The notes: generated by a model from the letters alone, not told the origin. DNA of 62,955 nt, filler included, from Hausera hauseri (GCA_046269625.1; 9 parts of 9 records of this genome joined end to end with filler, not necessarily neighbours in it); one strand, 5' to 3'; numbered from the whole stretch's first letter, positions 25,113-62,955 are shown. Made by a program: numbers and translations.

Positions 25113-25117
25113 AAAGA

Positions 25118-25590: not shown

Positions 25591-25657
25591 ATAACTGACG
25601 TAATAAAAATCGACTTAAATCGGTTATAGTAGTATATAAGCAACTCACACGCCCAAT

Positions 25658-30795: not shown

Positions 30796-30900
30796 NNNNN
30801 NNNNNNNNNNNNNNNNNNNNNNNNNNNNNNNNNNNNNNNTTAATTAATTAANNNNNNNNNNNNNNNNNNNNNNNNNNNNNNNNNNNNNNNNNNNNAAGTA

Positions 30901-31380: not shown

Positions 31381-31474
31381 TGTATATTTCTCTGTTTCTT
31401 TCTTTATTTCTGTAAATAAGGTCAGTTAGATAGTTCAAAACTATAAATATAGGTAGGTTATAATATTAGTCATC

Positions 31475-31939: not shown

Positions 31940-32101
31940 CTTCTTCAATAACGGAACATGGGCTTCAATGACGTGGAGGTAATTTGTATCATTGTGATAT
32001 GAGACAATACTCACAAAGTATATGTCGATTGTTTACAATGAATACAAACATTTGACATAAATAGAGATGCCATTTCATTTCACGTTTGTGTTATTTAAAA
32101 A

Positions 32102-32563
32102 ATGTCTTTAGAAAACAATTCAGCAGGTGACAGTCTCTAAAAAATGCCACGGTACAGCGAATATTCGCTCAGAAATTCTCGGTTGTATAATAAATACAAC
32201 TTACATTATCTGCACAACGCTATTCAATTTCCATTGACGCAAACGGTCAAATTCAAACCGGTGAAATGCGGTCTATTGTTGAAAAAGATCAGCGACGATG
32301 ATTTGGATACGATGGAAGCCACAATTAGAAAAGTTGACAGTGATTTGGCGTTGAGTAACAATATCCAGGATATATCGTCGATTTTTCTCAAAGAAAATAT
32401 GGAAAAAATTGTCAATTAACATGGAGGTGAAACAGCAGCTGCAGCAGCAGTTTTGCCACCGGAAGGAGCTAAAGGCTACGTGACACTGAAGCTCAAAGGA
32501 TTCAAGGAAAGCAGCGGCATAAAATCCCCAATATGGAAAATTGGGAAGTTCACAATGATTTAA
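32102..32563 (+). pseudogene. Conserved unknown element protein ORF-X (copy 1)
   Basis: Near-identical to ORF 42009-42413; two in-frame stops in this copy. Confidence 0.7.
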
Positions 32564-32865
32564 CTGACTTACTTTGTGTGTCTTTGTGATTTACTTTTTC
32601 TTCGATCAATAAATAAATGTATTTGTGTTACATAATTTGTTTTTAGTGCAAGGTTATTGTTTTACTTTACTTCCATCTTACTTAATAATAATAGGTTAAG
32701 TAAGTAACCGAAAACAAAACACAAAAGACACTGAACAAAGTACATTATTAACATTGAAATAAAACAATGTACAAAAGATAATCATTGCAATAATTATCAC
32801 AATATCCAGACCAGATTGAACTGCTTGTATCTGATCTGATCTAATCTGATACCACCGAACGTGTT

Positions 32866-37434: not shown

Positions 37435-39420
37435 TGTGGCGCCCACAGCGGCCGGTGCCCTTTGGCCCATTTGGTTGGACACGGCCGGGCCTCCGTCGCC
37501 GCCGCGTCGGTCCCATAGTGGACCCCGACTTTCCGCCTCGAAAGAGTATCCATGATACCAAGGCCTCAGTACGTTATCGTTCCCTTCCGACAAATGCGGA
37601 CGTCAATGCTGGATTGTGTAAATTGATTTATCAAATGCTGCTCATTGATCCTCGACAGAGACCGGCAATTTCGGAAATACTCAGTTAAGTCAGAGTGCAG
37701 GCGATATCGGCCAACATTTTACTGAAACCGTCGATAATGTTCGATAAAGGATCCTTGAGTTTTTTTGCCTCTGCTTGTACTTTTTCCAAACAAAGAAGAA
37801 TCTCCGCATACAACAAATTCACCGAAACATTGTCCAGCACGTTAAGCAACACAACACCAGCCACCAATTCCGAAACAACCATTACCAAGTTAACCAGCAA
37901 CGAAGCCGAAAGTTAATCAAGTCGGTATGTCATCATCGTTCGAATTTCAAACAGCCGGACTGACGAAATCGTCCATTGGTGCACAAAACAATTGACCGAT
38001 GAATGCTAATAATGATGGAAAAATGTATTTGGGTTTTTGAAAGAAGGTACCGGAAGTTTAATGAAAAGTATTCTGGATGCATCGAATAAGGTTATGGAGC
38101 AAGTGTTTGCTTCGATCAACAAGACGGAACTCGACATTCACTACGTTACTTCCAGAATAATTATTATGCCGTCTCCCGGTGAAACAGGAATCGATACCAT
38201 TACTCGGGACAAACTCGATGATATTCGAACATATCTAGAGTTCAGACACACTAATCAGTATTTTATTTACAATTTCAGTTTTCGATTGCTGAAAACTAAA
38301 AATCAAAGAAAGAGTTCTCCCGAATGGGTTTCGACTTTGCCAAGCTACCACAATTGAATACACTTGTCCAACTATGCATACATCAATTTGTGTGGTTGTC
38401 GGAAAATCCGAAAAATGTTGTCATAATTCAGAGCAAAGATGGTCGCACAACGTCAGGAATGAATGTTGCAGCTCTTCTGTGCTTTTGTCCATTGATTGAC
38501 ACCAGTGTTGGTGCACGAGATATTGTGAAATTTCGACGAGCTGATGTCCAGTTTACTGCATTACAGTACAGATACATCGACTACGTCTGTCGATTGGTTT
38601 GTTCCGCATCAGAACCATCCATTTCGCTTGATATTCCGCAATCAAAATTCGATTTTGTACTATTAAAAATCTAAACAATTATTTCTTCAATCAAAATTTT
38701 GAAAATTTTCGATCATTATATTATTTGATAGCCATTTAGATGTGGTAATTTAGGTTTCTTGATTTCAAATTAGCACTTCATATTTACCACTGATGAAATG
38801 TTCAAATATGTAAAGATTGCCAAATTTTACAACGTTCACATCGTTGTATGTTAATGCGTCACTTTTTTCGCGTCTTATACATGTTCCCTTTATATTTATT
38901 GACAGTTTTCTGTTATTCTAATATTTCATATACTCATTTTCAGTTGCTGTGGTAAATTTTTCCAAAGAAAAAAAACAGAAATTGTACATAAATCAGAATC
39001 CTCATCAGAATAATGACGTTCGATTGTGACTACTGTAAACATTTTGACAAAATAAAGTTATTTTTGTCAAAATCAGAACTGTTATAGTTATGAATGTTTT
39101 GTCTATGTATGTATGTATTTGTGCGTTTGTGTAAATACTTCTGTCTGAATATTTGGAATTTTTCTACATAGTCGTTTTGATCTTTTTTGTATTCGACAGA
39201 TATTAAATTTGTTTTAATAAACACAATATTTGTGGGCTTTATGAATTTGATTTTTGGTATTACCATATTGGAATTTTGTCTTCGATCTGATTTTTTTCAT
39301 TTAAATTTTGAATTAACAAATCGTTGTAGCCATTTTGATGATTTTTTATTCAACTGAATTTTTAGTTTTGACAAGTTCTATCTTACCCTCGATACATGGA
39401 TATTATTCAGCAAGATAATA
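37435..39420 (+). mobile_element. Solo-LTR-like insertion with 5-bp TSD (CAGAT 37430-37434 / 39421-39425) carrying host gene fragments
   Basis: The uninterrupted PolB copy 2 reads GAAAACAGACAGTCC across the site. The insert starts TGTGGCGCCCACAGCGGCC, 16/19 identical to the post-PPT LTR start at 55816. Confidence 0.8.
37520..38674 (+). pseudogene. GAK: Intronless cyclin G-associated kinase (GAK)/auxilin fragment: kinase C-lobe end plus PTEN-like domain
   Basis: LIYQMLLIDPRQRPAISEIL, then LKEGTGSLMKSILDAS.KVMEQV..ELDIHYVTSRIIIM..YFIYN..WLSENPKNVVIIQSKDGR..QYRYIDY. Confidence 0.8.
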
Positions 39421-41944
39421 CAGATAGTCCGGCATATGTGGTCTATGCCGATATCGAGGCAATCCTACCGCAGCACAACGTATACGATCAAAAGCACATT
39501 CTAATCGCCGTCGGTATGTTGGTTGTTTCAATAAAAGCTGCAGGACAACTGCAATATTACGTTTTTCATGGCTGGAACTATGTACGCGATTTCCTGTAAC
39601 AGTTGGAAATGATTGTGGAAACGGAAATCTTACCGTGGTACAGTAACAATAGCACTAAGCCCTTGATATCGACAAACGAATATAAACTACTGCTCTTTGC
39701 TGCCACCGATGAATGTTACCACTGCCACAAAATATTGCCTTTTCATGAACAGGAACGGCTCGTACCGGACCATGATCATTTCAACGGTCGACATTTTGGA
39801 GCAGCATGCAACGCACGCAATTTAACAAGGCGTGTGCGGATATTTCTACCGATAATCTTTCATAATTTCCGAGGTTATGATTGTCACCATATATAGACAT
39901 GGGCCATCAACGGATTCCCGCACTGGGAACTATCCATAATCCCAACAACAATGGAGAAGTATTTGTCCCTGTCAGAACGCATAAGCCTGTTCCACGTACG
40001 CTTCCTTGGTTCATTGCAATTTCTCAATAAATCATTGGCAAAGCTGGTAAATGCCTTGCCGGATGTGCCGATACCCTCAACGCAGTTCATCACACATACT
40101 GCACGCAGCAAAGGCATATATCCATATGACTTTGCAACATGATATGAGCGACTGCGGACAGCAGAGGAATTACCCCCACGATGGACAGGCATCACAGAAG
40201 ATGAATATCGGAGAGCACAAGAATCTTGTACTTATTAGCCGATGTGTTCCAAACGTTTCGAGCGAAAGCGTTGGCGGAAGATAGCTTGAACCACTCAACT
40301 TTTACTCAATACCCGGAATGAGTTGGACATCAGCTCTGATGTCACTGGATCCGGATATCGAGCTATTGCAAGACCCGAAAAATACCAAATGTTTGATGTT
40401 GTTATTCGGGGCGTCATGACATTTGTCAACAAGCATCACGTAACTAGTGATGATACCACATCACTGTTGTATATCGGCATTAATAACCTGTGCGGCTGGG
40501 CGCTTTCACAATCCTTGCCGTATGGTTCATTCAAATGGGTAGTCAACAAACAGGACATGAACACAATACTGGAAATGCGTCAAGAATGGACACGACAACA
40601 GCAAAAAACAGCTGAATCGGATACCTGATAGAGGTCGATCTTGTGATACCATATGAGCTTCGTGACGTTTTGGACGATTTACCAATCCACCATTTAACCA
40701 ATGTCCACCAGGTTCGAAGGTGAAAAGGCTGCTTATGACGCATAAACCCAAGCAAAATTACATAGTTCATTGGCGTCTGTTGCAATTTTACATGCAGTTG
40801 GGTGTACGCCTCGCACGGCTACATCGCGCAATCCGATTTGCTCAGGCTCCCATATTCAAGACGTACATAGGTGGAAATTCGGAGAAACGAGCCGCAGCTT
40901 GTAAAAAGTTTGAAAAGGACTACTACAAGCTGAAAAACGATTCTTTCTATGGAAAAACAGTGGAGAATGTGAAAACGCGTCTCAATGTCCGCCTATGCAA
41001 TAGCGAAAAGCAGTTGGTCATGTACACGAGTAAGGAGCAGTTTCGGCGGTCAATGCACATTGCCAATAGATTGGTTGCTTTGCTGTTAAACAGAGAAGTC
41101 GATCTGGACCGGCCAAGTTACATCGGACAAGTGGTACTGGACTTGAGCAAGTTGGAATGTATGAGCTGCAGTATCGCGATTTGGCACGTTACTGGCAAAT
41201 GTTTGGCGGCGGCGGCGTCATGATCAAAATAATCGCCAGTGACACAGATAGTTTTTTCTTAAAACTGGAAAACGCCAATCGAGAACAACTACTGCAGCAA
41301 ATGATGACAGACGGATTACTGGACACGTCAAATTACCCACAGAATCATTCATTATAGAGCAGTGCTATCACAAACAAAATCGGCTGCTTCAAGGATGAAA
41401 GTAAAGATCGGGTTCAGTATCGGGAATGGGTATTTCTACGGCCAAAATGTTATAGTTTGTTAACTGACTGTGAATCTAAAATGCGCACCAAAGGAGTTCA
41501 GTTGGCCCAGACGGAAATAAATCACGGTGATTATCGCCGTGTCTATGAAGAAGAATGAGGAAAATCAAGATCTGTTGTGTCTCAAACGATCATCCGATCG
41601 ATTCAGCACCAGCTGTATACGGTAACCAATACAAAAGTCGCTCTATCATGCAATAATGATAAGCGTAAGTGGGTGGGGCAAAATAAGAGTTGGGCGTACA
41701 GACATTGGCGTTTGGAATAAAACACGCACTCATGAATTCGGTGCAGACAGATCAAATTACTGTGATAATTCACTGTGATCTGCTTGTTTTGTATAAATAA
41801 TGTATATTATTCGTTGTTTTTGCCTTTTGTTTTATTAACATTTAATTTATCTATTTAATTTAATATGACGAGAAACAATATAAAAAACATACAAAATCAA
41901 TAAAATTTATTAATCATCATAAGCTAACATCCAAAACAAAGTAA

Positions 41945-42413
41945 ATTGAATCAGCGTAATCTTTTCCAGCTTCCATATTGGTGATTTAACGCCGTACAGA
42001 TCCTTGTGTCATTTCAACTTCAATGTTATAAGGCCTTTAGCTCCTTCCGGCGACGAAGCTGCTGCCGCTGTTGCTGCTGCTGTTTCTCCGCCATGTGAAC
42101 TCACAATTTTCGCCATATTTCCTTTGAGAAAAATGTACGATGTATCTCGGATATCGTTACTCAACGCCAAGTCACTGTCAACTTTTGTAATTGTGTCTTC
42201 CATTGTATCCAAATCATCGTCACTGATCTTTTCTACCAATTTACCATATTTCACCAGTTTGATTTTGACCGTTTGCATCAGTGGCACTTGAATAGCGTTG
42301 CGCAGATAATGTAAGTTGTATCCATTATATAACCGCGAATTTCTGAGCAAATATTCGCTATACCGTGGCTTTTTTGAGAGACTATGACCTGCTGAACTGT
42401 TTTCAAAAGACAT
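41945..42413 (-). CDS. ORF-X (copy 2), unknown function; 3' end frameshifted
   Basis: 134-aa ORF homologous to 32102-32563 and in the same position convergent to PolB. Confidence 0.65.
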
Positions 42414-42575
42414 TGTTAAAAAAAGACGAACGTGAACTGGAATTGCATCTCTATTTATATATAATGTTTGTTTTCACTGTAAACAATAGACATTTACTTT
42501 GTGAGTATTGTCTCATATCACAATGATACAAATTACTTCCACGTCATTGAAGCCCATGTTTTGCTATTGAAGAAG

Positions 42576-43054
42576 TCACTGGTAATAAATGTGTACAATT
42601 TCCATTATAGCACATTTACATTCTGGACATTGGTGGGTTGTTACTTTAGTGGTAGAGCACATTTGACAAATAACAAGATGGCCGCGCATTAAGAATACCG
42701 CATCCACTTTTCTTCGTTTACATAGTACGCACATAAACTGACAGTCTCGTACTTTGTCCATTATTTTCTCTTTCAAGTTCTTTAATTTACCGCGTACCTT
42801 TTTATCAGTATTAGAGTAATTTGTATCGTACAATCGGTGAATGTACATTTGATTTTACACAATAATTAGATTTTCTATAGAGCTGCAATCTGCTGTTGCT
42901 GTCATCAATGCTATTGACGCTAAATCCTTAAATCCAAATTCACCTGCTACTTTCACAACCAGCTCACTATTAAGTATTTTCCCCATCGTACCAAGTCTGA
43001 AATTGATAATCCATCAAAATTTTGCAATTGGTTCAGTTGATTAACTATTTCCAT
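42576..43054 (-). pseudogene. RING-finger protein (copy 2)
   Basis: CVLCKRRKVDAVFLMRGHLVICQMCSTTKVTTHQCPECKCAIMEIVHIY. Confidence 0.8.
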
Positions 43055-43165
43055 GATGATTAATATTATTTCCTACCTGTATTTATATTTTTTGAATTAT
43101 TCAATTGACCAACACGGCGGACCTTATTTACAGAAAGAAAGAAAGAAAGAAATATAGAAATACAT

Positions 43166-43642
43166 TTATTTATTTGCATGAAATATAGTCAAAACAAAGC
43201 CGTAGACATTTTTGTAAGCACAATGAGGTCCATGATCACGATAGGGACAACAAATATTGCAAGGTACCGTCGATGTTGAATACGTCGTCATTCGCAACTC
43301 GGGAAACTGCGAATACATTTGTGTAAACTTTTGCTCCACAATTTGATCTTTTATGTAAAATATCGTATTTTCAATGTCAAAACGATCGCAAATGTCTCCC
43401 ATAATACACAGTGCTCAAAGCGTTGAATTGCCTTAATACAAGTAAAGTCCATGACAATGTCGAAAGAGAAATCAATTTATAGTTTTCGCCTTTTCCATCA
43501 GGTCTTTCCACACAATACTGGGCTTGAATATGTACACAAGCGGTTCGAAAATGTTACCGACGTGCATAATGCATAATTCTTTTATCAGGTACCGGGAATT
43601 ATCATCTTGGAAAGCTTTAATATCTATAAATCCTGTCGCTAT
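43166..43642 (-). pseudogene. DEDD-like exonuclease (copy 2)
   Basis: Homologous to 30901-31380; C-terminal CPYRDHGPHCAYKNV. Confidence 0.7.
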
Positions 43643-43769
43643 TATTTATCTTGTATAAAATACTTTTTGTTTATAACACAAGCAAAGCAACTAACTAATA
43701 TAATTATTATTATCACAATCATTAAACATAGGTGGTTTTGTTTATATCATTAAAGCCAAATTCTTTGCG

Positions 43770-45519: not shown

Positions 45520-45805
45520 GATTATCCAAATAAAACGTGTTTTGTCTACGATTATTGAATGAAAATCATATGAATGAGAGGAGCAATCATCCAGAATCAC
45601 CGAGGAGGAAACAGAAAATATACGAGCATTTACGAGACTGCGGATTGTTGCAGACTTGTAAACATTTGGAAACCAGACTGGCTACCAAGAAAGAGTTAAG
45701 TCTCATTCACAATATAGATTACATCAACCGACTCCAAGAAGTCTGTAAAGACTCTGCTGATATACATCAAAATTTTGAAAATGACTGCAATTCTATATAC
45801 GATTA
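45520..45805 (+). pseudogene. Intronless class IIb histone deacetylase (HDAC6/10-like) fragment
   Basis: NHPESPRRKQKIYEHL..GLL..C..LETRLATKKELSLIHNIDYI...NSIY; similarity ends abruptly. Confidence 0.75.
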
Positions 45806-46005
45806 TTGCTGGTATTCATTTATGAATTCAACGAATCCAGTAACATGCTTCTTTGCATCAACCAGCCGACGAAACGTTGTTTGTATTTTCGAAGCTTATA
45901 CCGGACAATTTCTTTGACTATGGAATTTAGCTACCAAAAAACGTCAGAGACAATCTGAACTCACGGCGAATCAACTGCCAAGATGGAGTCTACAGAGTCA
46001 TAAAA

Positions 46006-47670
46006 ATGCGTATTCGTCTGCTGAAGTTAGAAATTGTTGAGTCTACCATCAAAACGACATCACCAAGGCCTGCTCGTCAATTGCGCCAAAAGCCATTGGC
46101 ACCACCATCTCTCCAGAAACCAGAAAAATTGCCAAGAGATAGAAATTCGAAGCGCATTTTCTGTACAAGAAAAGAAAATCGCCGTAGCAGTGCAATAGCT
46201 GTATCAACAGAAGTAAAACCAAGACGCGTTCGGCAACTGCGGTCGCCAAGTAAAAATAAGAAATTCAGTCCATCGGTTGTGGGAAATTCTCCATTAATAC
46301 TAAAGCTTTCTTCAAAACTAGCACAGTCACCAAAGTGCGAGTCCCCGCCGCCGTCCAAATCGACCGGCAGCATAAAGTTACGACTGAAGCGTACTCAGGA
46401 AATATCAACTGTGACAGAAACGAAACAAGATGACAATGCATTCGAATACAGTCAGACCCCGATAACGTTAGCACCTCCGATGCAGCCTCGACAACGCTTC
46501 CAGCACGCTGTTTTACAGTTTAGTCCGATTCAGTTGAGTTCCGACAGTGAATCGGGTGCAGCGTATAATGAAATAAGCCGTCTTTCGCAGCGTCAGGAAC
46601 AGCGAGAACCTCTCGAGTCGACTTCTATTGATCAGGGTTGTTCATTTTTTCAACTTCCCGTTCCGTATCTAAAGGGCACCAATCCCACTGTATTCATGGA
46701 TCCTCACGAGGTTGATTTGGTAGTTGTCAACAACGCCATGTACAAAGAAGTGTGCAATGTAGCAGCAGATGCTCGAAAAGCGCTTGTAGACGTCGTGTGT
46801 GATAATATCTCCAGAGAAATGTTCGTGCCCGGTTGTTACGTTGATCAGAAAAAAGCCAGTTTATCTTGGCATTATTCGAGCCCATCGATGCCAGTTCTAG
46901 CTCCACAGGAACCGCATTCCGGTACTGGTGATGTGAATAAAGCAACTAGTATGTTTGTTTATGGCCAGACTGTGTCCAACCAAAATTTCCAGCCCTACTC
47001 AGATCCACCAGACCGTGTCCAACAATCGCCGTTGTGCATGGCTGCAACGTTCCAGTCGAATCAGTATACTTCCCAATCGCCGTTCTGCCAATAACAGCAG
47101 CCACAACAGGACCAGAACTACCACTATCCGTCTAGTGGAGGATACAATTACTCGTCTCAGTCCACGGGCCAAATGCACCCCTCACCCGTCTGCTCCAGCG
47201 CAGTGTGTTCCACTCAACTGCAGGACTATTCGAACTTTCAAAGTAGCGCACAACAATCGGTGCAGTCTTATTCTTCTTCCTGCGATCCGTTATCATTTTC
47301 ATCAATGCCGATTGCCACCTCCAATTATCCGTCGTCCGAATCTCACGTGTCTAAATATACCAAAAACAAATGGTCATCCAGTCGCAGTAAAGCACATAAG
47401 AATTCGGCTACCTCGAAATTTCGGACCCGCCGAGGCGAGGCTGAGGTCCCGGCCGCCCCCCCTGCATTGGTGGGTCAGACGGCGCCTTTCGCTGCCGCCC
47501 CACGACACGCCCTGGGCACACCACCTCATCTTATCTCCTTTTCTTTTTTTCTCAACAACAAACACATTAGCACACATACAGTAACACATTTAACACAGCT
47601 GCCATTCATGAAAAAATCTCTACCTCTCTTCACTCCTTCAATTTCTACATCACACATAATGGATCTCTAG
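46006..47670 (+). CDS. Long low-complexity (basic, S/P/Q-rich) ORF upstream of gag, with a single in-frame TAA at 47092-47094
   Basis: ORFs 46006-47094 and 47173-47670 are in the same frame with no other stop; product unknown. Confidence 0.5.
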
Positions 47671-47744: not shown

Positions 47745-49011
47745 ATGGATTTGTCACCCACAACTGATACCACAGACAAACTTACCAAACCACAAATCCC
47801 CGTCATTCATTTACCCAAACACAGCGCTTCCTCACTCATTCACCCTGCACAGAATATTTCCTTGACAGCCAAAATTCTACTCAAACTTGGCTAAAACTGC
47901 ACCAATTTTGGCTCCTATCACAAAACGTCGTCGAATCTTTATCCAAAGCTAACAGCCTCTTTTTCCACTTACCAGCTTCCATCAAAACTAAAATTACCAA
48001 TATCATCGATATCCTTCAGCACTCCGATCCATATGTTCAACTTTGCAATGCTGTTCTCAAGCTTACTGAGCCGTCAATCGATTCAATCATTCAAAGATTC
48101 TTTAACGACAACCCTATGGGCCTTCAGAAGCCTTCTGAATTCTTACTCACATCCTTGTTTCACCTCAACACCCTTGGCGTAATATCTGAGCATAGTTCAG
48201 AACTTATTCGTCGCTACTTCTTAAATGCATTGCCCCTTCAAATAAGAGCTTTGCTTACCGTGGTCGAAGGCTCCACGGCTCTGGACAAGCTAACCGAACT
48301 GGCAAACAAAGCTTACGAAGTACTGAACTCACACATAACACCAACTGTCTCTGCAGCATTAACAACAGACCAACAACAACAAAATGCAATGCTGCAGAAA
48401 CAAATTGCGCAATTACGCACAAAAATGAAATGTTACAAAAGACAATCAACACCATAAACAACAAACTAAACGAACTAACGCTGCCTCGACGGGTTTTTTC
48501 TAGGCTTGCTTTCCTTAATGTATTTAATCAACGTCAAAGACGGTCGCCTTCACCCGCGCGGTCATCTATTTGCTATTATCGTAGGAAATTTGGCAACAAT
48601 GCTCAAAAATGCTGAATCGGGTGTAAATTTTATTCATCTGATTTTAATACAAGCAACATCATTTGCATCTACCACTCAAAATTTGGCCCAAAAGCACACA
48701 AATGCCTACCTGGATGTACCTACAGCACACACAATAGGACCAACACTAATAAGCTCAGACAAAACAGTAAGCCAAACTCACCAGCTACAAAAAACTGATT
48801 TTGCCGCTAGGACACACGGCAAGTCCTAGCAAAGGCAACAACCTGCAAAAACATAGCCTGCATATTTCCTTTGCTGTATTCACGTTGGAAGCAGCAATCG
48901 TCACTCCAACAAAGCAAAATATTAACTTCTTTATACACACCTGCATAGCAATCTCTTTACTGCCACCAACACAACACATTCAAAACAATTATACTTCACA
49001 AAAGCAACTTT
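47745..49011 (+). pseudogene. Gypsy gag (decayed), truncated at contig end
   Basis: KPSEFL..LIRRYFLNALP..L.ELA.K; two CxYHxKFGxxAxKC knuckles; homologous to 57870-58850. Confidence 0.8.
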
Positions 49012-49864: not shown

Positions 49865-51029
49865 TTTTTTGAAATATTGATGACTGTAATAATTACTATA
49901 TGGATCCGTAATTTGTTTCGTTTTAACAACTTTATTGGTTGATTATATTAACCTTTTATTTAACCTCATTTTATGCTTTACGTCAATATCCGTGCTGAGT
50001 AATGGAAGAACATATACTAAAATATAACTATATGTACTTTTCAAGATATCCATAAACCCATTACTCTACATTTACCTTTTTTTTCTAAAGCCGCATAAAC
50101 GGTAATGTTTTTTTGCGTCTTATAAATGTTGTGTGTGTGACGATGTTGATATAATATTGCTTACACTTACCTTTTTCTTGCATCTAATATATTTCTTTAC
50201 GTGTGTTTTTGTGTGAAAAATCGATTTCTATCTCATATTTTTCTAAAACCGCATAAAAGTTCATTTGTTCAAAGTTCACATGTACGTAGAAAATTTGTTT
50301 TTCTCTTCTGTACGCTGACGGAGATGCGTAGAAACTTTGCGACACGCAACCATAATCAGTAACCTATGGCCGATCGATTGAACCCCATTATGTTTAATTT
50401 GGACATATTTTCCGTTTCCAAAGGGTATATACTCTGCCGATTTTCGACGTTTCGCATCGCACTTCCGTTCCGGATCGGGGGATTTCCATTCGGACACTGT
50501 TACCGCATAGCCCGCGTCTTGGGCTTTCGTTCCATATGCTACTCGACGCCGGCCGCTTTCATCAGTGTACACACACGGACGCCTGTGACGTCATCGGTGC
50601 ATCGTGCACCTTTCGCGTTCCGTTCGTCTACCCACCGCCCAATTGCTGCGGGACCGCTGCCGAGTTACCCATCACGTTTCCCCGTTCCCCAGAAACCATA
50701 TGCCGGTCCTGGCTCACTGTCCCTCGCACCTTGCTTCTGCGTTCCGTCCCATCGACTTCGGTCCTTCGGCTTTCGATGCGCCTTCCGTGTCCCTTTATTT
50801 CCACGTGCCACACAATTCTGTGCACCACTTCCTTCTTAAATCCGCTTTTTCGTGCACGTCCCCTGCTTCCGGGATGCATCGTGCACTTTCGTCGGTGGTT
50901 TTTGGAATCTACGTCGCCGATTCTATCCGGCCAGTGCATGTATGCACATCAAGCACGCTTCGGATTGGCTGCAGGGGGCGGAGTGAGCCAGGATTAGCAT
51001 TTTTCTACTACTTTATGTTAATCTTTGTT

Positions 51030-51900
51030 GCGCCCGACCAACTGATTTCTACACTTCTCGATTTTCATTCTGTAAGGTTCAGTATGGTCTTGAAATTCTG
51101 TTTGAGAATGCTGAGGGTGACACTAAACAGACATTTCTCATCGGGCTATCCTGTCTTATTCCCAATCTGTTGATGATAAGTTGCAAGAGCTGAAATGGGT
51201 AATGGGGAAAGTAGTTAAGATTTTGAAATACTGTTTCCACATAGTCAAAACAAGCCCATTACCTTATATGGCTAGGTCGTATCTACAAGCACGTCATGCT
51301 TTAAAAAATGCAATGTCCGTTACTACCGTACAGAATGATGATAGTTCTTGTATTCAATTCTTGCAGTTACTAAGTGTTCTTCTATTGACAGCAATAGTCA
51401 TAGTTAGCAATTACACTCCTTACTTAATGAAAATGAAATATTCTTTGAATGACAGCTTTTTTTCTCAAGTGCCGTGGTTGACTTGCGATCACAACTTTTA
51501 CCGGCAATGATTGCAAATGAGCAAGTAGACACTTCCAACTGTGTGATCCACTGTACTCATCTCGATTCTTGGCTGTAATAAGGAAATTTAAAGACGAAAG
51601 TAAGGGTTGTGTTCAGTATGAAGAGATTTTCTTATGGCCCAAATCGTACTCGCTGAAAACTCAATGTAAATCAGTCCTGAAATGTAAGGGCATCAATCTC
51701 AAGCAGGCAAATTTGCAACATGAGAGCTATATACAGGCATATGAAAATGGTTGTGGTACAATGGTTTAACAGGAAAGAATTAGGATCAAAAATCATCAGT
51801 TGATGACCATCAGTTCAAAAGAGAAGGCATTGGATCCGTTTGATAATAAACGTCAATGGATAGAAAAGAATAAGTGTGGCCTATGGACATTTCAATGTAA
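51030..51900 (+). pseudogene. Internally deleted PolB relic (copy 5, same subfamily as copy 1)
   Basis: N-terminal part (PDQLI..VQNDD) fused directly to the C-terminus (KFKDESKG..PKSYSLK..KCKGI..FDNKR); exonuclease and palm are missing. Confidence 0.8.
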
Positions 51901-51982
51901 ATATGTAAACTTAACTTTCCTACTGCTACTGCTCTCTAATTGAATTCTTGTATACATCACTGCACATTTACATACATTTATT

Positions 51983-52348
51983 ATGAATACCTACACTTGG
52001 AGATTAAAAAACTTTAGGGACCACAAGAACAGTGTTACAATAGCCAGTGATTCCATCAATCTTCAACAATATCATTTCTGTATTCGAGTTTATCCGAATA
52101 TTGATGGCATAGGAAGAAATACCCATTTATCAGTATTCTTCGCAGTTGCCAAAGGTGAACATGACGATACATTGCAATGGCCTTTCCGTGCAGCAATTCA
52201 AATGTACTTACTGAATGGACAAGGTGAAGTTATCCGCTGTAACCAAAAAAACGGATGCAACATAGCAAGTGGATTTCCAAACTTTATTCCATTAACAAGA
52301 TTGGATTCGCTTCTTTTGATTTATTGGAGATTCTACCACCACCAATAA
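51983..52348 (+). CDS. Stand-alone TRAF-type MATH domain protein
   Basis: YTWRLKNF..FCIRVYPNIDGIGRNTHLSVFF..GEHDDTLQWPF..NIASGFPNFI. Confidence 0.85.
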   Translation: MNTYTWRLKNFRDHKNSVTIASDSINLQQYHFCIRVYPNIDGIGRNTHLSVFFAVAKGEHDDTLQWPFRAAIQMYLLNGQGEVIRCNQKNGCNIASGFPNFIPLTRLDSLLLIYWRFYHHQ

Positions 52349-52534
52349 AACATCCAGAAACAGCAAGTAAAAGAAAACAACAACTTCTGAATCCGATACA
52401 GGAATTTACCCATTTAAACAACCGACAAATGCATGTTATTGCTGCGATGCGCGCTATTGTATATGAATGAATTATTTGTAAATGTTGTACATTAATATTT
52501 TTTATTCTTTGGTCTTATTTATTTTATATAGTTA

Positions 52535-53002
52535 ATCATAATAAATATGTACATTTTCCGTTATAGTTAATTTACATTCCGGACATTGTTACTTTGCAAA
52601 ATTTACGACATACAACCAGGTGACCGCACATTAAGAATACCCTATCCACTATTTTCTTTACATAGTCCACACAAACTGATACTTCATTACTTCGTTCAAT
52701 ATTTTTTGTCTTAGATTATTGAATTCAACGCGTAACTTTTCAACAGTATTAAAATAATCTGTATCATACAATCGATGAATATACATTTGATTAAACACAT
52801 TCACTAGATTCTCTAATAACGTACAATCTGTTGTGGTCATCAATGCTATTGATGCTAAATCTTCTTTGAATCCAATATCTCCTACTGCTCTTACAATTAA
52901 ATTACTATCAACTAATTTCCACCATATTGAAAACTCTGAAATTGATAATCCATCGGAATTTTGCAATCGACTAACCCAGTGATTCCCAAACTTTTCGGTC
53001 AT
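52535..53002 (-). pseudogene. RING-finger protein (copy 3, diverged)
   Basis: LQNSDGLSISE..MYIHRLYDT..VFLMCGHLVVCRKFC..QCPECK, homologous to copies 1 and 2. Confidence 0.75.
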
Positions 53003-53153: not shown

Positions 53154-55815
53154 GACATACCGAAAACGGCTGTAACAACACCTTTCGGCCTTTTCGAGTA
53201 TGTTTTCATGCCATTCGGACTTCGTAGTGCCTCACAAACATTTCAAAGGCACATAGATGCGGTGCTCGCCGGTCTAAGCTTTGCGTTACCATATATAGAT
53301 GACATCCTCATCGCTTCGTCATATCCCAAGCAGCATTCTGAGAATTTATGCATAGTTTTTCAACGCCTTAACCAAAATAATCTAGAAGTAAATTTCGCCA
53401 AATGTTCTTTTTTCTAACACAAGATCCATTTCCTTGGTCATGTCATCACCAAATTTGGCCACTCTCTTCAGCAAGACCGCATAACGCAGCTTAAGAACAT
53501 CCAATTGCCACGAACAACAACTGAAATGCGCTCTTTTCTTGGCACACTCCACTTTGTTTACATATATGTGTCACATTGCTCTGAATTAACCGCACCGTTT
53601 GCATATTTTATCGTCTGGAAAGAAGAAACAATTAATTCATTGGACTCCCGAACTTGTCAACCAGTTTGACCTTTTACGTGAAAGTTTAAAAGCTGTCGGA
53701 ATTCTAGCATACCCAAGCCTGATGCAGAGCTGATATTAACAACGGATGCCTCTACCAAGGAAGTCGGCGCAATACTGCATTAAATTTCTAATGGCATCAA
53801 CGAGCCTCTGGAATTTTATACTCGGAAACTTACACCACCAGAAAATCGTTATTCAACTTTAGACAGAGAGCTCTTAGCTATAGTATTATCTCTAAAACAC
53901 TTTTTGCATTTGTTAATTGCCAGATCTTTTACAATCCAAACAGACCACAAACCACTGCTTAGTATTATGAACATGAAAGCCCCTTCACCCCGACAGGAAC
54001 GCCACATATCGTACTTGTCGACATTCAGTTTCAAAATGGTACATATTTCAGGTACTAACAATCTAGTTGCTGATTTTTTAAAAAGATCGTTAACATCATG
54101 GGAGTCACGCCGATTTTTTCACAAGCTGTACTTCAGCAGAACGTACCAACGCAGGATATTCTTAAATCCTTTAAATCACACCAAATCATTGACGGCGATG
54201 CCCATGACACTTCTAAACCCGGCAATCACAAACCTATACTATCCTAATCTTTGCAAAGAACTGCATTTCATATCGTGCATTCTCTTCATCATCCGGGAGC
54301 TAAAACAACTTTTCAGCTCTTACAACGTAACGTTAAATGGCCGTCAATGAGATCATAGGTACAGGCGTGGATTAAGGAGTGTGTGGCATGCCAGAAGTTT
54401 AAAACTAACAGACATCTGAAGCCACCCCTTTATCATTTCCCCTGTACATCGCGTTTCGAATCCGTGCATATTGACCTAGTCGGCCCTCTTCGACCAGATA
54501 ACGGTCATCAATTCATATTGACCACGATGGACCGTGCTTCTCGATGGCTAGAGGCCATTTCATTATGCTTCACCAACATGGACGCAATCGCTGATGTTTT
54601 CATCAAAACTTGGATCAGCAGATTTGGCTCATCTCGTTTCATTATCACGGACCAAGGTCCGCAATTTGAGTCAAATCTCTTTGAAGCCTTAGTCAATCGC
54701 TTAGGGATCAAACACATATACACTTCTCCATATAATTCTCAAGCGAACGATTTACTTGAACGATTTCACCGCACAATGAAAACCTCGCTCAAAATCCTTG
54801 CTGAATCACACAGAACGGGACATTACTTCTTCCACTTATCCTGATCAGTTGGCGTAACACACCTTCTACAACTACGGGTTGTGCACCAGATGAGGCATTG
54901 TTTGGGACACCTATTCGGGCACTTTATAAGTTAATTGATTTAGAGGACACACCAACATATGAGCTAATTCGAGATGCGCAAAATCACTTTGTTGCATTAA
55001 ACAGGGACTTATTTTACAAAATTGTAAATAACACCAAATCAAATATACCAGATTATTTATATGCCTCCAAATTTGTCTGGCTTCGTAATCCTTCACCCAG
55101 TGGTTTTCAACCGCAATACATTGGTCCGTTTAAACTACTGTCTTTATCCTCTCATACGGCAACGATTCTTAAAAATGGCAAAGAACAGACTGTGCACCTA
55201 ACAAAATCTGCTTTCTTTGCTGATGATTCTCCCGAGGATACACAAACCAACACCAACTCTACTGGTACTTTTCTTGATTCTTTTGCCACCATTTCACCCC
55301 CATCCAATTTAACTAACCACACACGACATTCACGTAAAGGCAAATCTCATTCAGATTTTTCTCCTCAACCTTTTCCAAATTCTCAGTCTCCTTCACATAT
55401 TCAACCTTCCTCAAGCACGCCTTTTCTGACTCTACTCTACTGAATATCTCTCCTCATTTCTCTTCAAATGCCCAATCTCCCTCCAATCCTAAGGTCTTCA
55501 CACCTGCTCCACCTCTTATATCTTCCTCACCCTCGGCTGACTTTCCTTTGCAACCATCATTTTCCACAACTAAAACACCTTAAACGGTAAATTCAGATAT
55601 TTTTCCACAACTTACACCTCTGCAAGCAAACTCAAAATACGCAAGCAAAATACGCAGAGTTACCTTCAATAAGTACAGTGGAGAACAAAATTTCGACAAA
55701 GTACAACGTCTGGCTCACACAAAAACCGAGTAAGACAGAAACACTTTTCTCTTTTGCAGATTTTGCCTTTCATGGTTTTTCCCTGTATAGTCTTCACTTT
55801 GTTACGGGAGGATGA
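53154..55815 (+). mobile_element. Gypsy element A: decayed RT, RNase H, integrase and 3' UTR, ending in PPT GGGAGGATGA
   Basis: MPFGL..YIDDILIAS, TDAS, DRELLAI, TDHKPL, HIDLVGPL, ITDQGPQFES, ERFHRT. Confidence 0.93.
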
Positions 55816-57563
55816 TGTGGTGCCCACATTGGCCAATTTAAGAAAAAAACTATGGAATTAGCAAATAAAATCATTTGTAAAGTTATCATAAATCTATATA
55901 AGTTAAAAATGAATGTGCCGTAATTTCAGATTTCACGATACCCGCCAATCTGGTGTTGTTTAAATAAAAAGAAAATTTTTGAGATTAAAAATTTAAAAAA
56001 ATAGATTTTCAGTTTTTTTCTTCATTCTGCCATTTTTATTTTTCAAAGTAATCAAATCACATTTTTATTCAATGGCTGTACAGACTCATGTTTTGTTGGG
56101 AGGAAGGTTCTGTTTAAAACAAACTGTCGATGCTGATTATTTTTGCAAATCTTTAAAATCCCTATTGGCCATTTTTTGCAGAAACTGCGAAACTCATAAC
56201 CTTTCTCGGGAATAGGTTAGAACTCGCTACAAATGCGGGTAATTTCTTGATGCTATTCAACTCTGATTTGAATCAGAACGAATTGGAGATTAAGATGAAA
56301 CTCAACAATGGGGATTCACGTGACATTAACGATGACACGGCATTTGAGACCGTTGTTAAAAGCCCTTCTGATGGTGAAAATTATACTTTGGACTTTACGA
56401 ATGATGAATCGATTGAAAACGAATATAAACCGGAAATACAAAAGATCAATGGTAATCCTAGTAATTTGAATTTGTTCCCCGATGATTACGAGGAATTCCC
56501 CGAAGGCCACTATTTCGTCAAAAAGACCGTAAAAAGAGGTTTACTTCCTGCAGATTTTACGTCGGTTGAAAATCCAGTTAATACATTTGAACATGATCCA
56601 GCAGCAATATTTATGTCAAGCACGTATATTTGGAAAACTAAAGCGATTGCTCTGTATTTAACACCTTTTCCTCTCTGTGTAACCGTTATAGATTCATCAG
56701 TACAATCATTTGGCATATTATTTCCAAAAATTTAATCAAAACACGGATTGCAAATTCCTGGACATTTTTCAGATTACATTCGTCAAGCTAAACCCATGCG
56801 ACAGCAAGTTACCCAAATTAATTATCGACTAAAGACGGATAGCCATGTAATTAGTCGAACTGCTCAGGAAATTAGCTCTCCGGGTGTGCAAGTCTGGTCG
56901 TTGCATGCTTTAGCTTTAATTGCAGATTCTGGAGTTTTGTCTCTTTTTTTACAATCTCCCCATCACTAACTGATGTTCATCAATATCTTGGTAAAGTTCT
57001 GAGTGCATTAATAACAACTTTGGGGTTTGAACTTCAAAGCCATTCTCCCACAATTATCAGTCTCAGAACGTCTTGTACGTCAGTTGTTCGATTTTGCAAA
57101 GTACGTCCTGATTCTTTAGTTCAAGCTGAATCAGTTTGTTGCGTTAGGCAACTTCATACGTTTGCTATATGTAATAGAAATCTTTCATCCTTTGTTCATC
57201 ATTTGCATGATGGCTTATCCAGTCACCATTTGTTGCTATGGCGAGCTGTGATTGCGTGTTTACGACAATTGTCCCAAAAAGAAAGTCCAAAAGAAATTTC
57301 CGAAACCGTTTCCCTAATTCTCAAGGAAAAGAAAAATACAAATAGCAAAAATTCTAATATAATTCCCGTGAAATTTGCTAGAGGTGTTTCTTCAGATTCG
57401 ACAATTGCAGCTTTTCTGAACCCAGGTTTACAAAAAAGATCGGTGATTTTACTAAATACCTATTCCGTAACAATTTTTAAAATAATTACAACTAAAGCAG
57501 TTCAATCACTGTATTCTGTATTTTTCAGCATAGTTAATTCAGTTAGAATGATCAGTTATCACA
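55816..57563 (+). mobile_element. ~1.75-kb LTR-like unit (TGTGG...TCACA) between Gypsy A and B, carrying host-gene cargo
   Basis: Starts right after the PPT; ends ..TCAGTTATCACA shortly before a PBS-like TGGCGCGCCCG (57577). Confidence 0.6.
56570..57340 (+). pseudogene. HEATR5: Intronless, internally deleted HEAT repeat-containing protein 5 (HEATR5/Laa1) fragments
   Basis: EHDP, PLCVTVIDSSVQSFGILFP, HFSDYIRQAK.MRQQ, SPGVQVWSLHALALIADS, GFELQ, DSLVQA..QLH.FA..NLSS..SSHHLLLWRAVIACLRQLSQKE. Confidence 0.85.
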
Positions 57564-57576
57564 ACGCAGGAATTTT

Positions 57577-60500
57577 TGGCGCGCCCGTGTTTTGCGCACC
57601 ATGCCACACCAGACATCTAAAAACCTCATTTTTTAACTCTCGTTTGAAAATAAACGCACGTACACATACTACAAACATCAAACAGAAACTATTACATATT
57701 TGTTATGGGCTGTACAACGAGAAGCATTACCGACTAATTGTCATCTCAGTTTTAATGGATTCTTTTTGCAGCAATCCGATATTGTCACTAGCTATACCCG
57801 CTCATCTTTGACACCTATACTAACTGCACATTACTGTTTGTTAGGCGGATCTGACCCAAACTCCACCGTCTACTGTAAACCTACGTTGCGTAGAATATTT
57901 CGTCGACAAGCAACACTCTAGCCGGACATGGTTGTACTTTCATGCAGCTTGCTTGAAATCAAATAATATAGTCGATTCGTTTCTTAAAGCAAACAGTTTG
58001 CTCATGCTCTTGCCTTCTAACATTAAGTCGCAGCTTCCCAATTTATCGGAAATCTTCCTAAGTGGCGACCCATATAAAATACTTTTTAACTCTATCTTAA
58101 AAATTACCAAACCATCTCTCGATAACATCATCCATAAACATTTTAGTGATACCACCATAGGAACATTAAAACCCTCAGAATTTCTACAAACGTCACTAAT
58201 TCAACTGAGTACTGTTGGTGTTAATCAAGCGAACAACGCCGATTTATTACGCAGGTATTTTCTGCAATCTTTACCCAGAGATATACGTGAGCTGCTGACC
58301 ATAGTACAGGATACATCATCATTATAAAAACTAGCACAACTGGCTGACAAAAACAACGAGATTTTGCATGCACATGCAGCACCATTAGTAGCCGCTACGT
58401 TACAAGCACCAACAACACAACAAGCTAGTGACATAGCTAATTTAAACTCACAGATAAATTCCTTACGGGCTGAAAACACGGCAATACACCAAGCCATTTC
58501 TTCTCTTACGTCTAAACTGGACAAATTATCCATGCCGAGACGAGAACGATTTACGCCTAATCACAGTCGCGCTTCATCGAACAATTCGAAATCCTCTAGA
58601 TCACCTACACGATCAATAGTGTGCTATTACCACACCAAATTTAAAGTCAACTCCACTAAATGCTGTTTAGGTTGCAAATTTTATGTTCCCATTTCAAACG
58701 ACCCGACAATATCTGTATCTATCATAACAAATTCAATACTAAAGCACATAATTGCGCTACTGGATGCACTTTCGTTAAGCGAGCTACTTCATCACGATTT
58801 ACTCTTTCCAACAACATAAGTCCTGTGCCTCCAAAAAACTTATAAAGCCGCCAGATGTTTCGGAACATACTGGCACTGGCAAACATCGTCAATCTAATAG
58901 CCGTACTTATGCCGTTTTTACACTAAAAGTTTCTCTAACTTCCGAATCCAATCAACCCATCAACTTCCTAATTGACTCAGGCGCTGCCGTTTCTTTGTTA
59001 CCACCATTGATCAAAACACCATTCATTTCACCATCCAAAACTAAATTATACACAGTTAACGGCCAAGCTTTACGCATTTTCGGCACGTCCAAAGTTTTAT
59101 TCACTTTGCCACCATTCCCCAACATTTTCAATTGGACATTCATCGTTGCCGACATACAATCTCCAATACTCGGATCTGATTTCTTACCTTAATACAACAT
59201 TCTTGTAGATTGTAGACAACGTCGGATCAACAAAAGCAGTTCAACAAAACCTACCTCTACAAATAACCAACAAATAACGCAACCTATCTCGCCTATAAAA
59301 TCCATATTAAAAGAACCATCAGTTAACGCAAATAAGAACGTCATTAATACCAATATAAATAATCCAATGTTTTTGTTGCAGTTCGGTAATAGAGGAACAA
59401 AAAGAGTTGACAAGGCCGATTTAGGCGACTCGATTTCTTGCGTTTTTAATCAAACCACTAATTCCAATTAAACCACTGTCGTGACAGCAACAGCCTTTAC
59501 TATGCTTATCCAAGAAATGCAACGATATCTTACCAAATTTTGTTTCCATACAATTAAAAAAGACCTAGTATTTCGACAGGCTAACACGACTCTTCATCAT
59601 ATCATCACAGAAAACCTTAGGCCCGTTAGGCGAAAACTCCGCCCACTTTCACAACGGCGTCGACAGGCAGTACAAGCGGAATTCTGTGCACTCGAGCAAA
59701 CTAGCATCATAAAACGCTCTAAATTACCATGGGAATTACCACTCCACGTCGTCCCAAAGAAAGATAGCACATTCCGTCCATGTGGTGATTATCGACAACT
59801 TAATAATGTCACAACCATTGATGCTTATCCTCTACCGTTGATTAAGGATATATTGCATTCTTTACACAAGACTACGATTTATTCAACCATAGATCTCGGA
59901 AAAGCCTACCACCAAATACCGGTATCACCAGAAGACATCCCAAAAACGGCCATTATAACACCTTTTGGTCTTTTCGAATACGCATTCATGCCGTTCGGTT
60001 TAATGAACGCAGCACAAATTTTCCAACGGCACATCGATTCAGTTCTTTCAGGCTTGCCATTTGCATATCCATACATTGTTGGCATACTGGTCGCATCGGC
60101 ATCGCCCAAACAACATGAAGAACATCTCAGACTAGTTTTCCAACGTTTGCACAACTACAATTTGCAAGTGAACTTTTCTAAATGTTCCTTCTTTCAGAAA
60201 AGGTAAATTTCCTTGGCCACGTCATCACACCTGACGGGCACAGTCCAGAGCCTGATAGAATCCATCAGCTACGAAACATCGAGGTACCAAAAACGACTAC
60301 TGATATGCGTAGTTTCCTTGGGACTTTACATTTTGTACATAAATACGTCCCACACTGTAGCCAGTTAACTGCTCCTTTCGCTCAACTAGGAGCAGGGCCA
60401 AAGAAAAGGCTCGTATATTGGACACCAGAACTTATTAACCAGTTCGATGAACTTCGCAACAAGCTCAAAACAGGCGAAATTTTATCCTACCCAAAACCTG

Positions 60501-62386
60501 ACGCTGACCTCATTTTAATAACCGATGCATCAACTACAGCAGTAGGAGCAGTTCTTCATCAAATATCTCAAGGTACAAATGAACCGTTAGAATTCTTTTC
60601 GCGCGAACTGTAGCCACGATAACGCCGCTATTCTACCTTCGATAGAGGAATCTTGGCTATTGTTTTAGCTCTGAAACATTTTTCACACTTACTTATCGGT
60701 CGTTCCTTCACCATTCAAACTGACCACAAGCCTCTCGTTCACGTAATGAACATGAAACAACCATCACTGCGACAAGAACGTCACATATCATATCTGTCAA
60801 CATTCAACTTTAAAATATGCCATATTTCGGGCACAGACAATTTAGTAGCTGATTTTTTATCACGGTCAGTCGGTGCAATCAGTGTGACGCCTATATTCTA
60901 CAAGGATCAATTGATCCAGAATTCCCCTTCTAATGAAATTCTGAAACAATACAAATCCGTGCAAACTATCAATGGAATAGCCAAGGATACTTCGACACCT
61001 GGACAACATTTACCAATTTTGGCACCTCCTCTCCAACAAACTGCATTTCAACATGTTCATTCTTTGCATCACCCAATTTCCAAGGCTACATTCCGCCTTC
61101 TCAAACGCCACGTAACATGGCCATCGATAAGGTCTGATGTACAGAGCTGGGTTAGGCAATGCGTAGCTTGCCAAAAGTTCAAAGTACCTAAATATCTTAA
61201 ACCACCATTATTCCATTTCCCATGTACATCCCGCTTTGAGTCAGTTCACATAGACATCGTTGGCCCATTACTTCCGATAACAGCCACCAATTCATCTTAA
61301 CAATGATGGACCGCGCGTCTCGTTGGCCGGAAGCCATCCTCATGCGCTTAATCAATATAGACTCCATTGTCGAAGCATTCATAAAGATTTGGATTAACCG
61401 GTTCGGTTCACCTCGCTATATAATTACAGACCAAGGTCCCAATTTGGATCGAACCTATTCAAATCTCTAGTTAATCGACTGGGCATAAATCATATACACA
61501 TAACTCCATACCATCCCCAGTCGAACGGCTTACTAAAACGTTTTCATCTCACTCAAAATCTCATTAAAAATCCTGGCCGAAACTCATAAGAATTGGACAA
61601 ACATCCTTCCTTTTGTTCTACTCGGATGGCGCAATACGCCATCTACTACCACCAGTTGTGCACCCGCTGAAGCACTTTTTGGTACCAAAATTCGTGCACT
61701 TTTTGAACTCACCGATTTGGACAACACACCAACTGACGAAACAATTAGGTCTGCACAAAATCATTTTGTTCATTTAAACCAGGATTCTTTCTGCAAAATA
61801 GTACAATGTGACAAAACATACTTACCTGACTCTCTATTTAATGCAATGGTCGTGTGGATAAAAAATCCTTCACCTTCCGGATTCCAACCAAACTACTTAG
61901 GTCCATATAGAGTTCTCAATCTAACTTCTCACACGGTTACAATACTAAAAAACGACAAAGAACAAAATGTGCACATATCTAACGTAAAACCTGCATTTTC
62001 GTTAATGACACACCGGATTCAACAACTAACTCTGCACATACCTTCCTTGACTCCTTCAACCCTTCATCTGTTTTACCACAGAGACAACCTGCTATTCCAA
62101 AACCCGAATCAGTACAAAAAACTATGTTAAAAGAAATACCGAATAGTTCTCAAGCTGCTGACACGTGAAATCAAAATTTAACTTCCTACCAACCAACTCA
62201 GCAAACAGTCAAACAGCAGGGTAAAAAACACAAGACAGTCACCTTCAGAAAATACAGCAGGGAACAAAATATCGACAAAATTCAACGTCTTGTCCATACA
62301 AAGACTCATTAGTTCGCTTACACATGTCTGTCTTGTTTTCTTACTCCCGTTACATTAACACAGTGCCATCTTCGTAACAGGAGTAG
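57577..62386 (+). mobile_element. Gypsy element B internal region: gag (~57870-58850), protease (~58960), RT, RNase H, integrase; PPT ~62378-62386; decayed
   Basis: FLIDSGAAVSLLP, RPCGDYRQLN, MPFGL, YIVG (mutated YIDD), TDAS, TDHKPL, HIDIVGPL, ITDQG, GPY. Confidence 0.93.
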
Positions 62387-62955
62387 TGTGGTGCCGCGAA
62401 CTCGGACGCCACCACAGTCTAACTGCACCGAATTCTGCAATAAACACAAAGATATCGATTTTCTTCAATATACGTTTCAACAACAATGTCTGGGTTGAAT
62501 CTAGATTCGGAAATCGACTCGGTATCAGTTGTCGCAGGTCTACAACAGGTAAAAGCTCGACTTATGCATCAAGAAGTGGGATACCAGAAACCGTTATTTC
62601 TGGAGCCCACTACAGACTGCCATGTTCACCATTCTTCCTTGAAAACGGAAGTTCCTTAGCCTGGGTTATAATTCACTACAAATGGTCGACCAGGTTGTAC
62701 CAAAATTCAGCAGATCGGGTTTAGAGGTCTTCTTATAGATTGGCCTCCAAAAACGAAAAGGGGACGTTAACCCATTAAAGCAGTCAAATAAAACGACTGA
62801 AATACGAACAGCAAAAAAACGAACAAATAAAACAAATAATTTTTATTGTTATTCTTCATTTCGTCCGCTGATGCGTAAGAATCCTCGGTTGAGGAAAGGG
62901 TCACGTTAACCCTCGTTTTCCGGCGTGGACATATCGGAATGTCATCCGATCCTGA
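62387..62955 (+). mobile_element. Start of the 3' LTR of Gypsy B (truncated by the window)
   Basis: TGTGGTGCC immediately after the AGGAGTAG polypurine tract. Confidence 0.65.

Follow-up and report, generated by a model that had tools for sequence, protein, structure and literature searches.

Capture of host mRNAs by template switching, including two genes in one copy, has been documented across animals (PMC5131818). In the part of Tan et al. 2016 on which we draw, the retrocopies are partial and uninterrupted mRNA pieces without poly(A), two genes may share one copy, and the switch points show short overlaps (PMC5131818). The locus described below resembles them in these respects, but in the retrocopies of Tan et al. 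the cargo replaces internal ORFs between matching LTRs, whereas here it lies upstream of a working primer-binding site (PBS) with a full-length gag-pol after it (PMC5131818). In the portion of PMC6431247 that concerns us, the cargo listed for LTR elements either follows pol or takes the place of coding sequence, and none precedes the PBS. Pack-MULEs, Helitrons and LARDs, in the same source, are also mobile DNA with mosaics of host gene fragments, but their cargo is captured at the DNA level or sits between LTRs (PMC6431247). As far as the excerpted description goes, cqgypsy_1 of Culex is similar in that a Gypsy element has cellular-RNA-derived sequence at its 5' LTR/PBS junction; that sequence, a tRNA dimer of 149 bp with a 26-nt duplication, occurs in a single Osvaldo element, in contrast to the kilobase mRNA mosaics at several loci here (PMC3286476). 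Helenus, Ajax and Cassandra carry host RNA sequence within their LTRs and tandem arrays of them are reported, but according to the section consulted they are non-autonomous and hold conserved small-RNA promoter pieces, unlike the decaying, locus-specific coding fragments seen here (PMC10886601). Among the papers and excerpts consulted, none evidently describes mRNA cargo within an LTR or ahead of the PBS. Capture of mRNA by LTR elements is already known; what is less usual here is the place of the cargo, before the PBS.

The elements around this cargo resemble the CsRn1 clade. Published features of this clade, in the sections we used, include a gag CHCC motif (CX2HX9CX3C), a tRNA-Trp PBS and 4-bp target duplications (PMC2582038), and LTR end motifs TGTGGYG (5') and MSYYAMA (3') (PMC3601003 Table 3). 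LTR lengths are 146-381 nt among the rows listed (PMC2582038), with a mean of 330 nt (PMC3601003). Like PwRn1 and AgCR, our elements have a CHCC gag, a tRNA-Trp-type PBS, a TGTGGYG start and the order PR-RT-RH-IN, and may have a MSYYAMA-type end (PMC2582038, PMC3601003). The arrangement here differs from that of described members, to which these excerpts give short matching LTRs (>97% identical) and a PBS directly behind the 5' LTR, and for which the same excerpts mention no host cargo (PMC2582038, PMC3601003).

The window analysed here is a stretch of 62,955 nt from Hausera hauseri (GCA_046269625.1). The stretch with HEATR5 cargo lies in its last contig (53154-62955), where the following features were distinguished.

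53154-55805, + strand: element A, whose CsRn1-type Gypsy pol (RT, RNase H, integrase) is decayed, with the 3' untranslated end; rve match
55806-55815, + strand: polypurine tract (PPT) of A, GGGAGGATGA, which aligns with the PPT of B
55816-56231, + strand: 416 nt, probably the core 3' LTR of A, starting TGTGGTG and ending CGCTACA, then AATG
56232-56579, + strand: coding-like cargo with no homologue identified, 116 open codons, acidic, in the frame of HEATR5 piece 1
56580-56825, + strand: HEATR5 piece 1, profile positions 746-821, 44 bits; tblastn E 5e-11
56829-56933, + strand: HEATR5 piece 2, profile positions 927-961, joined in frame to piece 1
56948-57355, + strand: HEATR5 piece 3, profile positions 981-1114, 129 bits; E 1e-24
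57356-57576, + strand: remaining cargo, open in the HEATR5 frame, including TCACA at 57559-57563
57577-57589, + strand: tRNA-Trp-type PBS of B, 11/13 to the published CsRn1 PBS TGGTGAGCCCGTG (1/5000 shuffles)
57590-62386, + strand: element B, decayed, with leader, gag, protease, RT, RNase H, integrase and PPT
62387-62680, + strand: 294 nt, probably the core 3' LTR of B, resembling 55816-56231 at both ends only
62683-62691, + strand: TGGTCGACC, PBS-like, two bases after the end of the B core LTR

Elements A and B, and an element C at another cargo locus of the window, are assigned to the CsRn1 type from the CHCC gag, the PBS, the LTR start and the domain order. The gag of B contains two tandem CHCC motifs (58622 and 58714), and that of C, 44% identical to the B gag, contains one at 48664. 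The C gag region 48570-48720 appears to have two such motifs, one of them broken. TGTGGYG follows the PPT in both A (55816) and B (62387), and B has the order PR-RT-RH-IN (PR at 58968, RT at 59472-60203, RH and IN from 60623). An IMG/VR scan with the RT of B gave no relatives among three candidates. The integrase of A matches Pfam rve (E 1.4e-11), and the contig start removes the 5' part of this element, gag included. Since A and B are only 66% identical over 2081 nt, they represent different families. Thirty loci of 172 candidates from a metagenome scan (32-57% identity) were used only as controls. Paired LTRs were visible in four of the nine control loci checked. The control L014 (8663-12707) holds a short but complete CsRn1-like element, whose two 163-nt repeats are identical and whose target duplication is 4 bp. 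TGTGGYG starts three of the seven LTRs read at such unrelated loci and therefore marks the clade, not one family. Elsewhere in the window, at 15056-15290, another Gypsy-type integrase 3' end is followed by a purine tract and then by TGTGAGG, a different LTR start.

The original prediction described a TGTGG..TCACA unit of about 1.75 kb (55816-57563), lying directly after the PPT of A and before a PBS-like site and the gag of B, as an LTR with a swappable interior of host cargo. The left junction is as described: TGTGGTGCC starts at 55816, directly after the purine tract (55806-55815) that closes the decayed pol of A, and the final 180 nt of A and B align through the PPT and TGTGGTGCC with a score that 0/300 shuffles reach. 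On the right, the PBS, leader and gag of B do follow, but TCACA ends 13 nt short of the PBS, against a gap of 1 nt in L014, the one control in which both LTRs and the target duplication are readable. TCACA is also off the MSYYAMA motif, which speaks against it as an LTR end. A better candidate lies further upstream. The heptamer 56225-56231 matches MSYYAMA at 7/7, being one of five matches in the unit, and 56215-56235 is identical to the end of the B 3' repeat (62664-62684) at 18/21 positions. None of 300 unit shuffles exceeds 16 identities and 1/60 whole-unit shuffles reaches 18; in a gapped test, 9/300 shuffles were as good and three other window sites scored higher. Full-length alignment of the two core LTRs was not significant (43/200 shuffles). 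An AATAAA lies at 55864, inside the probable core LTR of A. The 1.75-kb unit is thus probably not one LTR: it would comprise a core LTR of 416 nt and then about 1.35 kb of cargo, with a core end at 56231 that we infer as probable and that is not proven. An alternative end at 56583, at the beginning of HEATR5, was not retained because 56231 is better supported. The core lengths of 294 and 416 nt are near those of published CsRn1 LTRs.

No second copy of the 55816-57563 unit was found in the window, either at 62387-62955, where the window ends, or elsewhere, A being covered from 53154 onward. A direct repeat between the start and the end of the unit was likewise not found (74/500 shuffles). In run X1, 21 separate contigs cover 56226 and 26 cover 55714, indicating that the unit begins with repetitive sequence, as the 3' end of A is repetitive. 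Summed depth in X1, which is not copy number, was 546 and 425 over 55770-56423 and 103-149 over 56424-57404. Arithmetic on it would place a step at 56238-56338; such depth cannot rank the parts, and no claim here rests on the step. Run X2 gave zero cover in the bin 56424-56750, which is not evidence of absence, and about 1.5 in the next two bins. Among the joints, loose ends and pieces listed, none falls on the inner boundaries of the unit.

The reading that we favour, with a probability a little below even, is that reverse transcriptase at the PBS step switched onto a co-packaged host mRNA and that the cargo was then copied as an LTR extension. The cargo itself is best defined by its HEATR5 pieces. 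In a protein search, 22/624 candidate proteins passed E<=0.01 (best E 1.3e-24 at 50% identity); all 22 carry PF20210 and/or HEAT Pfam families and most of the named ones are HEATR5. The best matches are from molluscs, at about 50% identity; taken with a Toll-like-receptor-like ORF and the Polinton-like remnants of the window, they indicate an invertebrate. Among 1.84 billion representatives, 106 matched at E<=0.001; eight of these were examined, and the six named clusters among them are all HEATR5. A Pfam scan of the HEATR5 pieces, and of the GAK pieces described below, detected no HEATR5 or GAK family. A profile of 2019 positions built from 44 long homologues places three colinear sense pieces that total about 245 profile positions. 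The pieces, their order and their strand are directly legible. At the first junction about 105 residues are absent in frame and the pieces are 3 nt apart; at the second about 19 residues are absent, the frame changes at a T run and the pieces are 14 nt apart. Piece 1 carries one stop (56733-56735).

The colinear, internally deleted fragments of the original prediction are therefore present, and their intronless nature is likely. When short predicted proteins were compared with P0026, 5/48 ended matching at residue 1066-1068, four of these continuing with V, as after a GT, and 10/48 began at residue 1009-1016. These clustered ends look like exon edges of other organisms, and piece 3 crosses both without insertion. 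Some of the 48 proteins read through both sites, so the host HEATR5 may itself lack these introns. The cargo likely derives from spliced mRNA. It shows no apparent introns and no poly(A), in the manner of the partial mRNA copies of LTR-mediated retroposition. The stretch works like that known process and lacks the positional feature of the class.

The case that would have undone the original prediction, a native HEATR5 locus flanked by short elements, has homology alone on its side and appears to us next to impossible. The pieces amount to only about 245 of about 2000 residues, with large parts absent across gaps of just 3 and 14 nt; they include an internal stop and a frame change; and 135 HEATR5 sequences used as queries found no other match in the whole window at E<1e-3.

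The other coding-like sequence that had been noted in the unit is also present. The segment 56232-56579 is open over 116 codons, which only 2/3000 shuffles match. This ORF had no match in ESM Atlas, two protein searches, PDB (E>1), Pfam or PHROGs, and an IMG/VR scan gave no relatives among 34 candidates. An exact-sequence look-up in a protein collection found 0/10 window ORFs. Behind piece 3, the segment 57356-57576 is possibly a fourth, C-terminal HEATR5 piece, a weak candidate that 29/1000 shuffles equal in score with a profile chosen after the fact and that the full HEATR5 profile did not detect. The HEATR5 frame remains open for 311 codons (56876-57811) through the PBS and the leader of B, and for 149 codons across the PBS, a length reached by 1/3000 shuffles. 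We propose no HEATR5-gag fusion: the frames agree, but three stops intervene just before gag. Inspection of the sequence between the cargo and the PBS at 57577 found no poly(A) run.

The two PBS-like sites of the contig, like the PPT, can be read directly. The bases preceding the PBS at 57577 (GGAATTTT) form no integrase end, which argues against integration of an extended LTR. At the other end of B, an LTR-end and PBS pattern at 62676-62691 is unique in the window (3/3000 shuffles, for a pattern chosen after the fact), and the core LTR of B is set at 294 nt because of it; the end of this core (62674-62680) fits MSYYAMA at 6/7. Only the first 8 nt and one 21-nt patch of the B 3' repeat align with the 1.75-kb unit. 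The visible 569 nt of the B 3' end contain no identifiable host gene. AATG follows both core LTRs (56232 and 62681). At 56232 it could be the 4-bp target duplication of a nested insertion, in which A inserted into a cargo-bearing long 5' end of B; the cargo would then belong to B and be expected again behind the B 3' end, past the last base of the window. One event would then explain both the tandem and the unlike repeats, and 4-bp duplications are typical of the clade, in the portion of its description used here (PMC2582038). Moreover, a PBS-like site and more sequence lie behind the B 3' core, although only 264 nt of it fall within the window, and this segment (62692-62955) shows no match to the HEATR5 cargo. 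AATG behind both cores is also more natural as an LTR-PBS junction than as a chance target, and the 5' end of A is outside the contig, where the other half of the duplication is not readable. We therefore consider a nested insertion unlikely. It has the capture step in common with our preferred reading.

Two further loci in the window carry host-gene cargo.

37435-39420, + strand: GAK comparison unit, with an 84-nt GC-rich start, a damaged PBS at 37519, GAK/auxilin pieces and the end ATA
45534-45914, + strand: in-frame fusion of HDAC6 and WRAP53/TCAB1, E 1.3e-14 (HDAC6) and 5e-9 (WRAP53)

The GAK unit matches auxilin 3n0a (E 5e-12 and 2e-12), and its upstream kinase-like tail fits GAK at E 0.6 only. 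It interrupts a Polinton-like element, and another copy of that element in the window has the site without the insertion. CAGAT (5 bp) stands on both sides of the unit, or the 4-bp AGAT if the unit ends one base later. The GAK unit is thus a mobile insertion with a duplicated target. Its tRNA-Trp PBS lies 84 nt from the start, lacks two letters and is the sole such site in the window (3/20000 shuffles). No 3' repeat, not even a short one, was found in the unit, and no AATAAA in its 84-nt core. We disregarded a weak TRPV2 match within it (38655-38970, E 0.003), which falls in a hydrophobic frame rich in stops; it may reflect composition or a further cargo gene.

Decayed and mutually similar stretches, which we take to be Polinton-like from their polymerase- and protease-like frames, occupy 16400-19950, 24000-26760, 30896-35617, 35718-43650 and 51000-52970. 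A 550-nt inverted repeat was noted at 23729-24276 and 26241-26756. Directly behind one of its arms, at 26997-29712, is a nearly intact, intron-free LRR + TIR gene over two frames, presumably of Toll-like receptor type. A dispersed SINE-like family of about 150-200 nt was found at 6-112, 3317-3447, 5070-5214, 13751-13889 and 21411-21610.

As had been predicted, the GAK and HEATR5 units have little more than their start in common (16/19 nt, and nothing else of note). The first seven of these nucleotides are the clade motif TGTGGYG and thus no family mark; beyond them the units agree at 10/12 nt, which 22/400000 random window 12-mers equal, and this agreement indicates that the two units are related. 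The start of the GAK unit shows no significant likeness to the pre-PBS stretch of C (175/500 shuffles). The view that the whole TGTGG..TCACA is one LTR, of a family that keeps its ends and exchanges its host cargo, draws on this agreement and on the fact that the unit fills the interval between PPT and PBS. The start motif, however, is clade-wide, the two units show no alignment at their 3' ends (p 0.28), TCACA is off-motif and distant from the PBS, and both units contain inner signs of an LTR end or a PBS. Nor were two LTRs with equal ends and different middles seen in the window. Because both units show a core repeat, then a damaged PBS or a trace of one, and then cargo, the cargo is placed behind the core LTR. 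What stands of the swappable-interior idea is that host cargo fills the PPT-PBS interval and recurs at other CsRn1-linked loci; the idea itself we hold to be very improbable.

The start of the GAK unit bears on another explanation. The LTR, PBS and cargo could be the leading part of a non-autonomous element like those of Tan et al., with a later deletion that removed its PPT and 3' LTR together with the 5' LTR of B; the cargo would then never have been in an LTR. Such internal capture is a documented form in animals, according to the part of the source used here (PMC5131818); the GAK unit starts in exactly this way, with a short repeat, a PBS and cargo, and the region is old and decayed. This explanation needs a deletion that ends at the PBS of B, the GAK unit ends at its duplicated target even though it has no 3' repeat, and neither a PPT nor a second TGTGG was found inside the 1.75-kb unit. 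We judge it distinctly improbable.

The fusion of HDAC6 and WRAP53, a locus absent from the original prediction, precedes the PBS-like sites and gag of element C by about 1.6 kb. The HDAC6 and WRAP53 matches overlap by four residues (query 86-89), as expected of a microhomology switch. PBS candidates of C are degenerate only (47468 and 47493), and the contig start hides the left end of this element. Between the fusion and the leader of C, a long low-complexity frame (45931-47670; 387 + 191 codons with one stop between) showed no convincing homologue; a NEXMIF-like atlas match for 45931-47091 (score 0.81) was set aside. In total, four identified host genes occur at three CsRn1-linked loci in the 63-kb window, all sense to the element, suggesting that host-gene cargo may be frequent in this genome. 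The clathrin/AP-1 theme of the original prediction extends to GAK and HEATR5, which we take to be factors of this kind, and not to HDAC6 and WRAP53; two of four genes fits coincidence.

This recurrence also bears on whether the HEATR5 cargo is a bystander or an artefact, that is, an unrelated HEATR5 retrocopy that two insertions happen to flank, or repeat copies wrongly joined in a fragmentary assembly. The window consists of contigs of 4-10 kb linked by runs of N and is dense in decayed mobile elements, and among the listed X1 and X2 contigs none spans the stretch. The outer junctions, on the other hand, are exact biological signals (PPT and PBS), and host-gene pieces occupy this position at all three loci in the same sense. 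Chance association or mis-assembly is accordingly a poor explanation, to which we give only a small probability.

Our preferred reading, capture at the PBS step, starts from ordinary LTR reverse transcription, in which the minus strand ends at the PBS and pairs there with plus-strand strong-stop DNA. In the proposed scheme, minus-strand synthesis would stop at the PBS and its free end would jump to a host mRNA. Further jumps during copying of the mRNA would produce the internal deletions or, at HDAC6-WRAP53, a switch to another gene; not until then would the growing strand join plus-strand strong-stop DNA. The product would have the order LTR, first PBS (whole or part), sense cargo, second PBS and gag. 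If the first PBS were damaged, priming would have to occur at the second one; copying would then carry the cargo, along with U5, into both ends, where it would act as an extension of the LTR. Recombination between the two LTRs would leave a solo extended LTR, for example the GAK unit. The common tRNA-Trp PBS of the clade would allow joins between families, which would explain why an A-type core LTR stands ahead of B; the tandem with A would take one further recombination at the A-type LTR.

This scheme would explain a damaged PBS after the GAK core, a GAK target duplication without a 3' repeat (as a solo extended LTR), a PBS-like site behind the B 3' core and cargo that ends at the PBS of B. 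It is supported by HEATR5 pieces that are partial, colinear, sense and uninterrupted, and by the recurrence of a core repeat with a PBS-like site at 37435/37519 (3/20000) and 62387/62683 (3/3000), patterns chosen after the fact. Against it, no paired extended LTR was seen in the window, and a first PBS would be represented at 56232 by AATG only, which could as well be a target duplication of 4 bp. The GAK core measures only 84 nt, the duplication flanking the GAK unit has 5 bp versus 4 in the clade, and the A-cargo-B tandem takes two events. The capture step and any copying of the cargo are what we infer from this arrangement.

In its widest form, the proposal is that a CsRn1 lineage of this animal regularly extends its LTRs with spliced host mRNAs taken up at the PBS step, with kilobase mosaics (HEATR5, GAK, HDAC6-WRAP53) in both LTRs of full-length elements and as promoter-bearing solo LTRs genome-wide. 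We put this forward tentatively and think it rather doubtful. If the rivals hold, the stretch is ordinary retrocopy debris among nested old elements. Capture of mRNA usually costs an element its own genes, while cargo before the PBS would cost no coding capacity. If the proposal is true, such cargo would be doubled in each cycle and persist as solo LTRs, and would offer a cheap route to exon shuffling and to small RNAs that match host genes.
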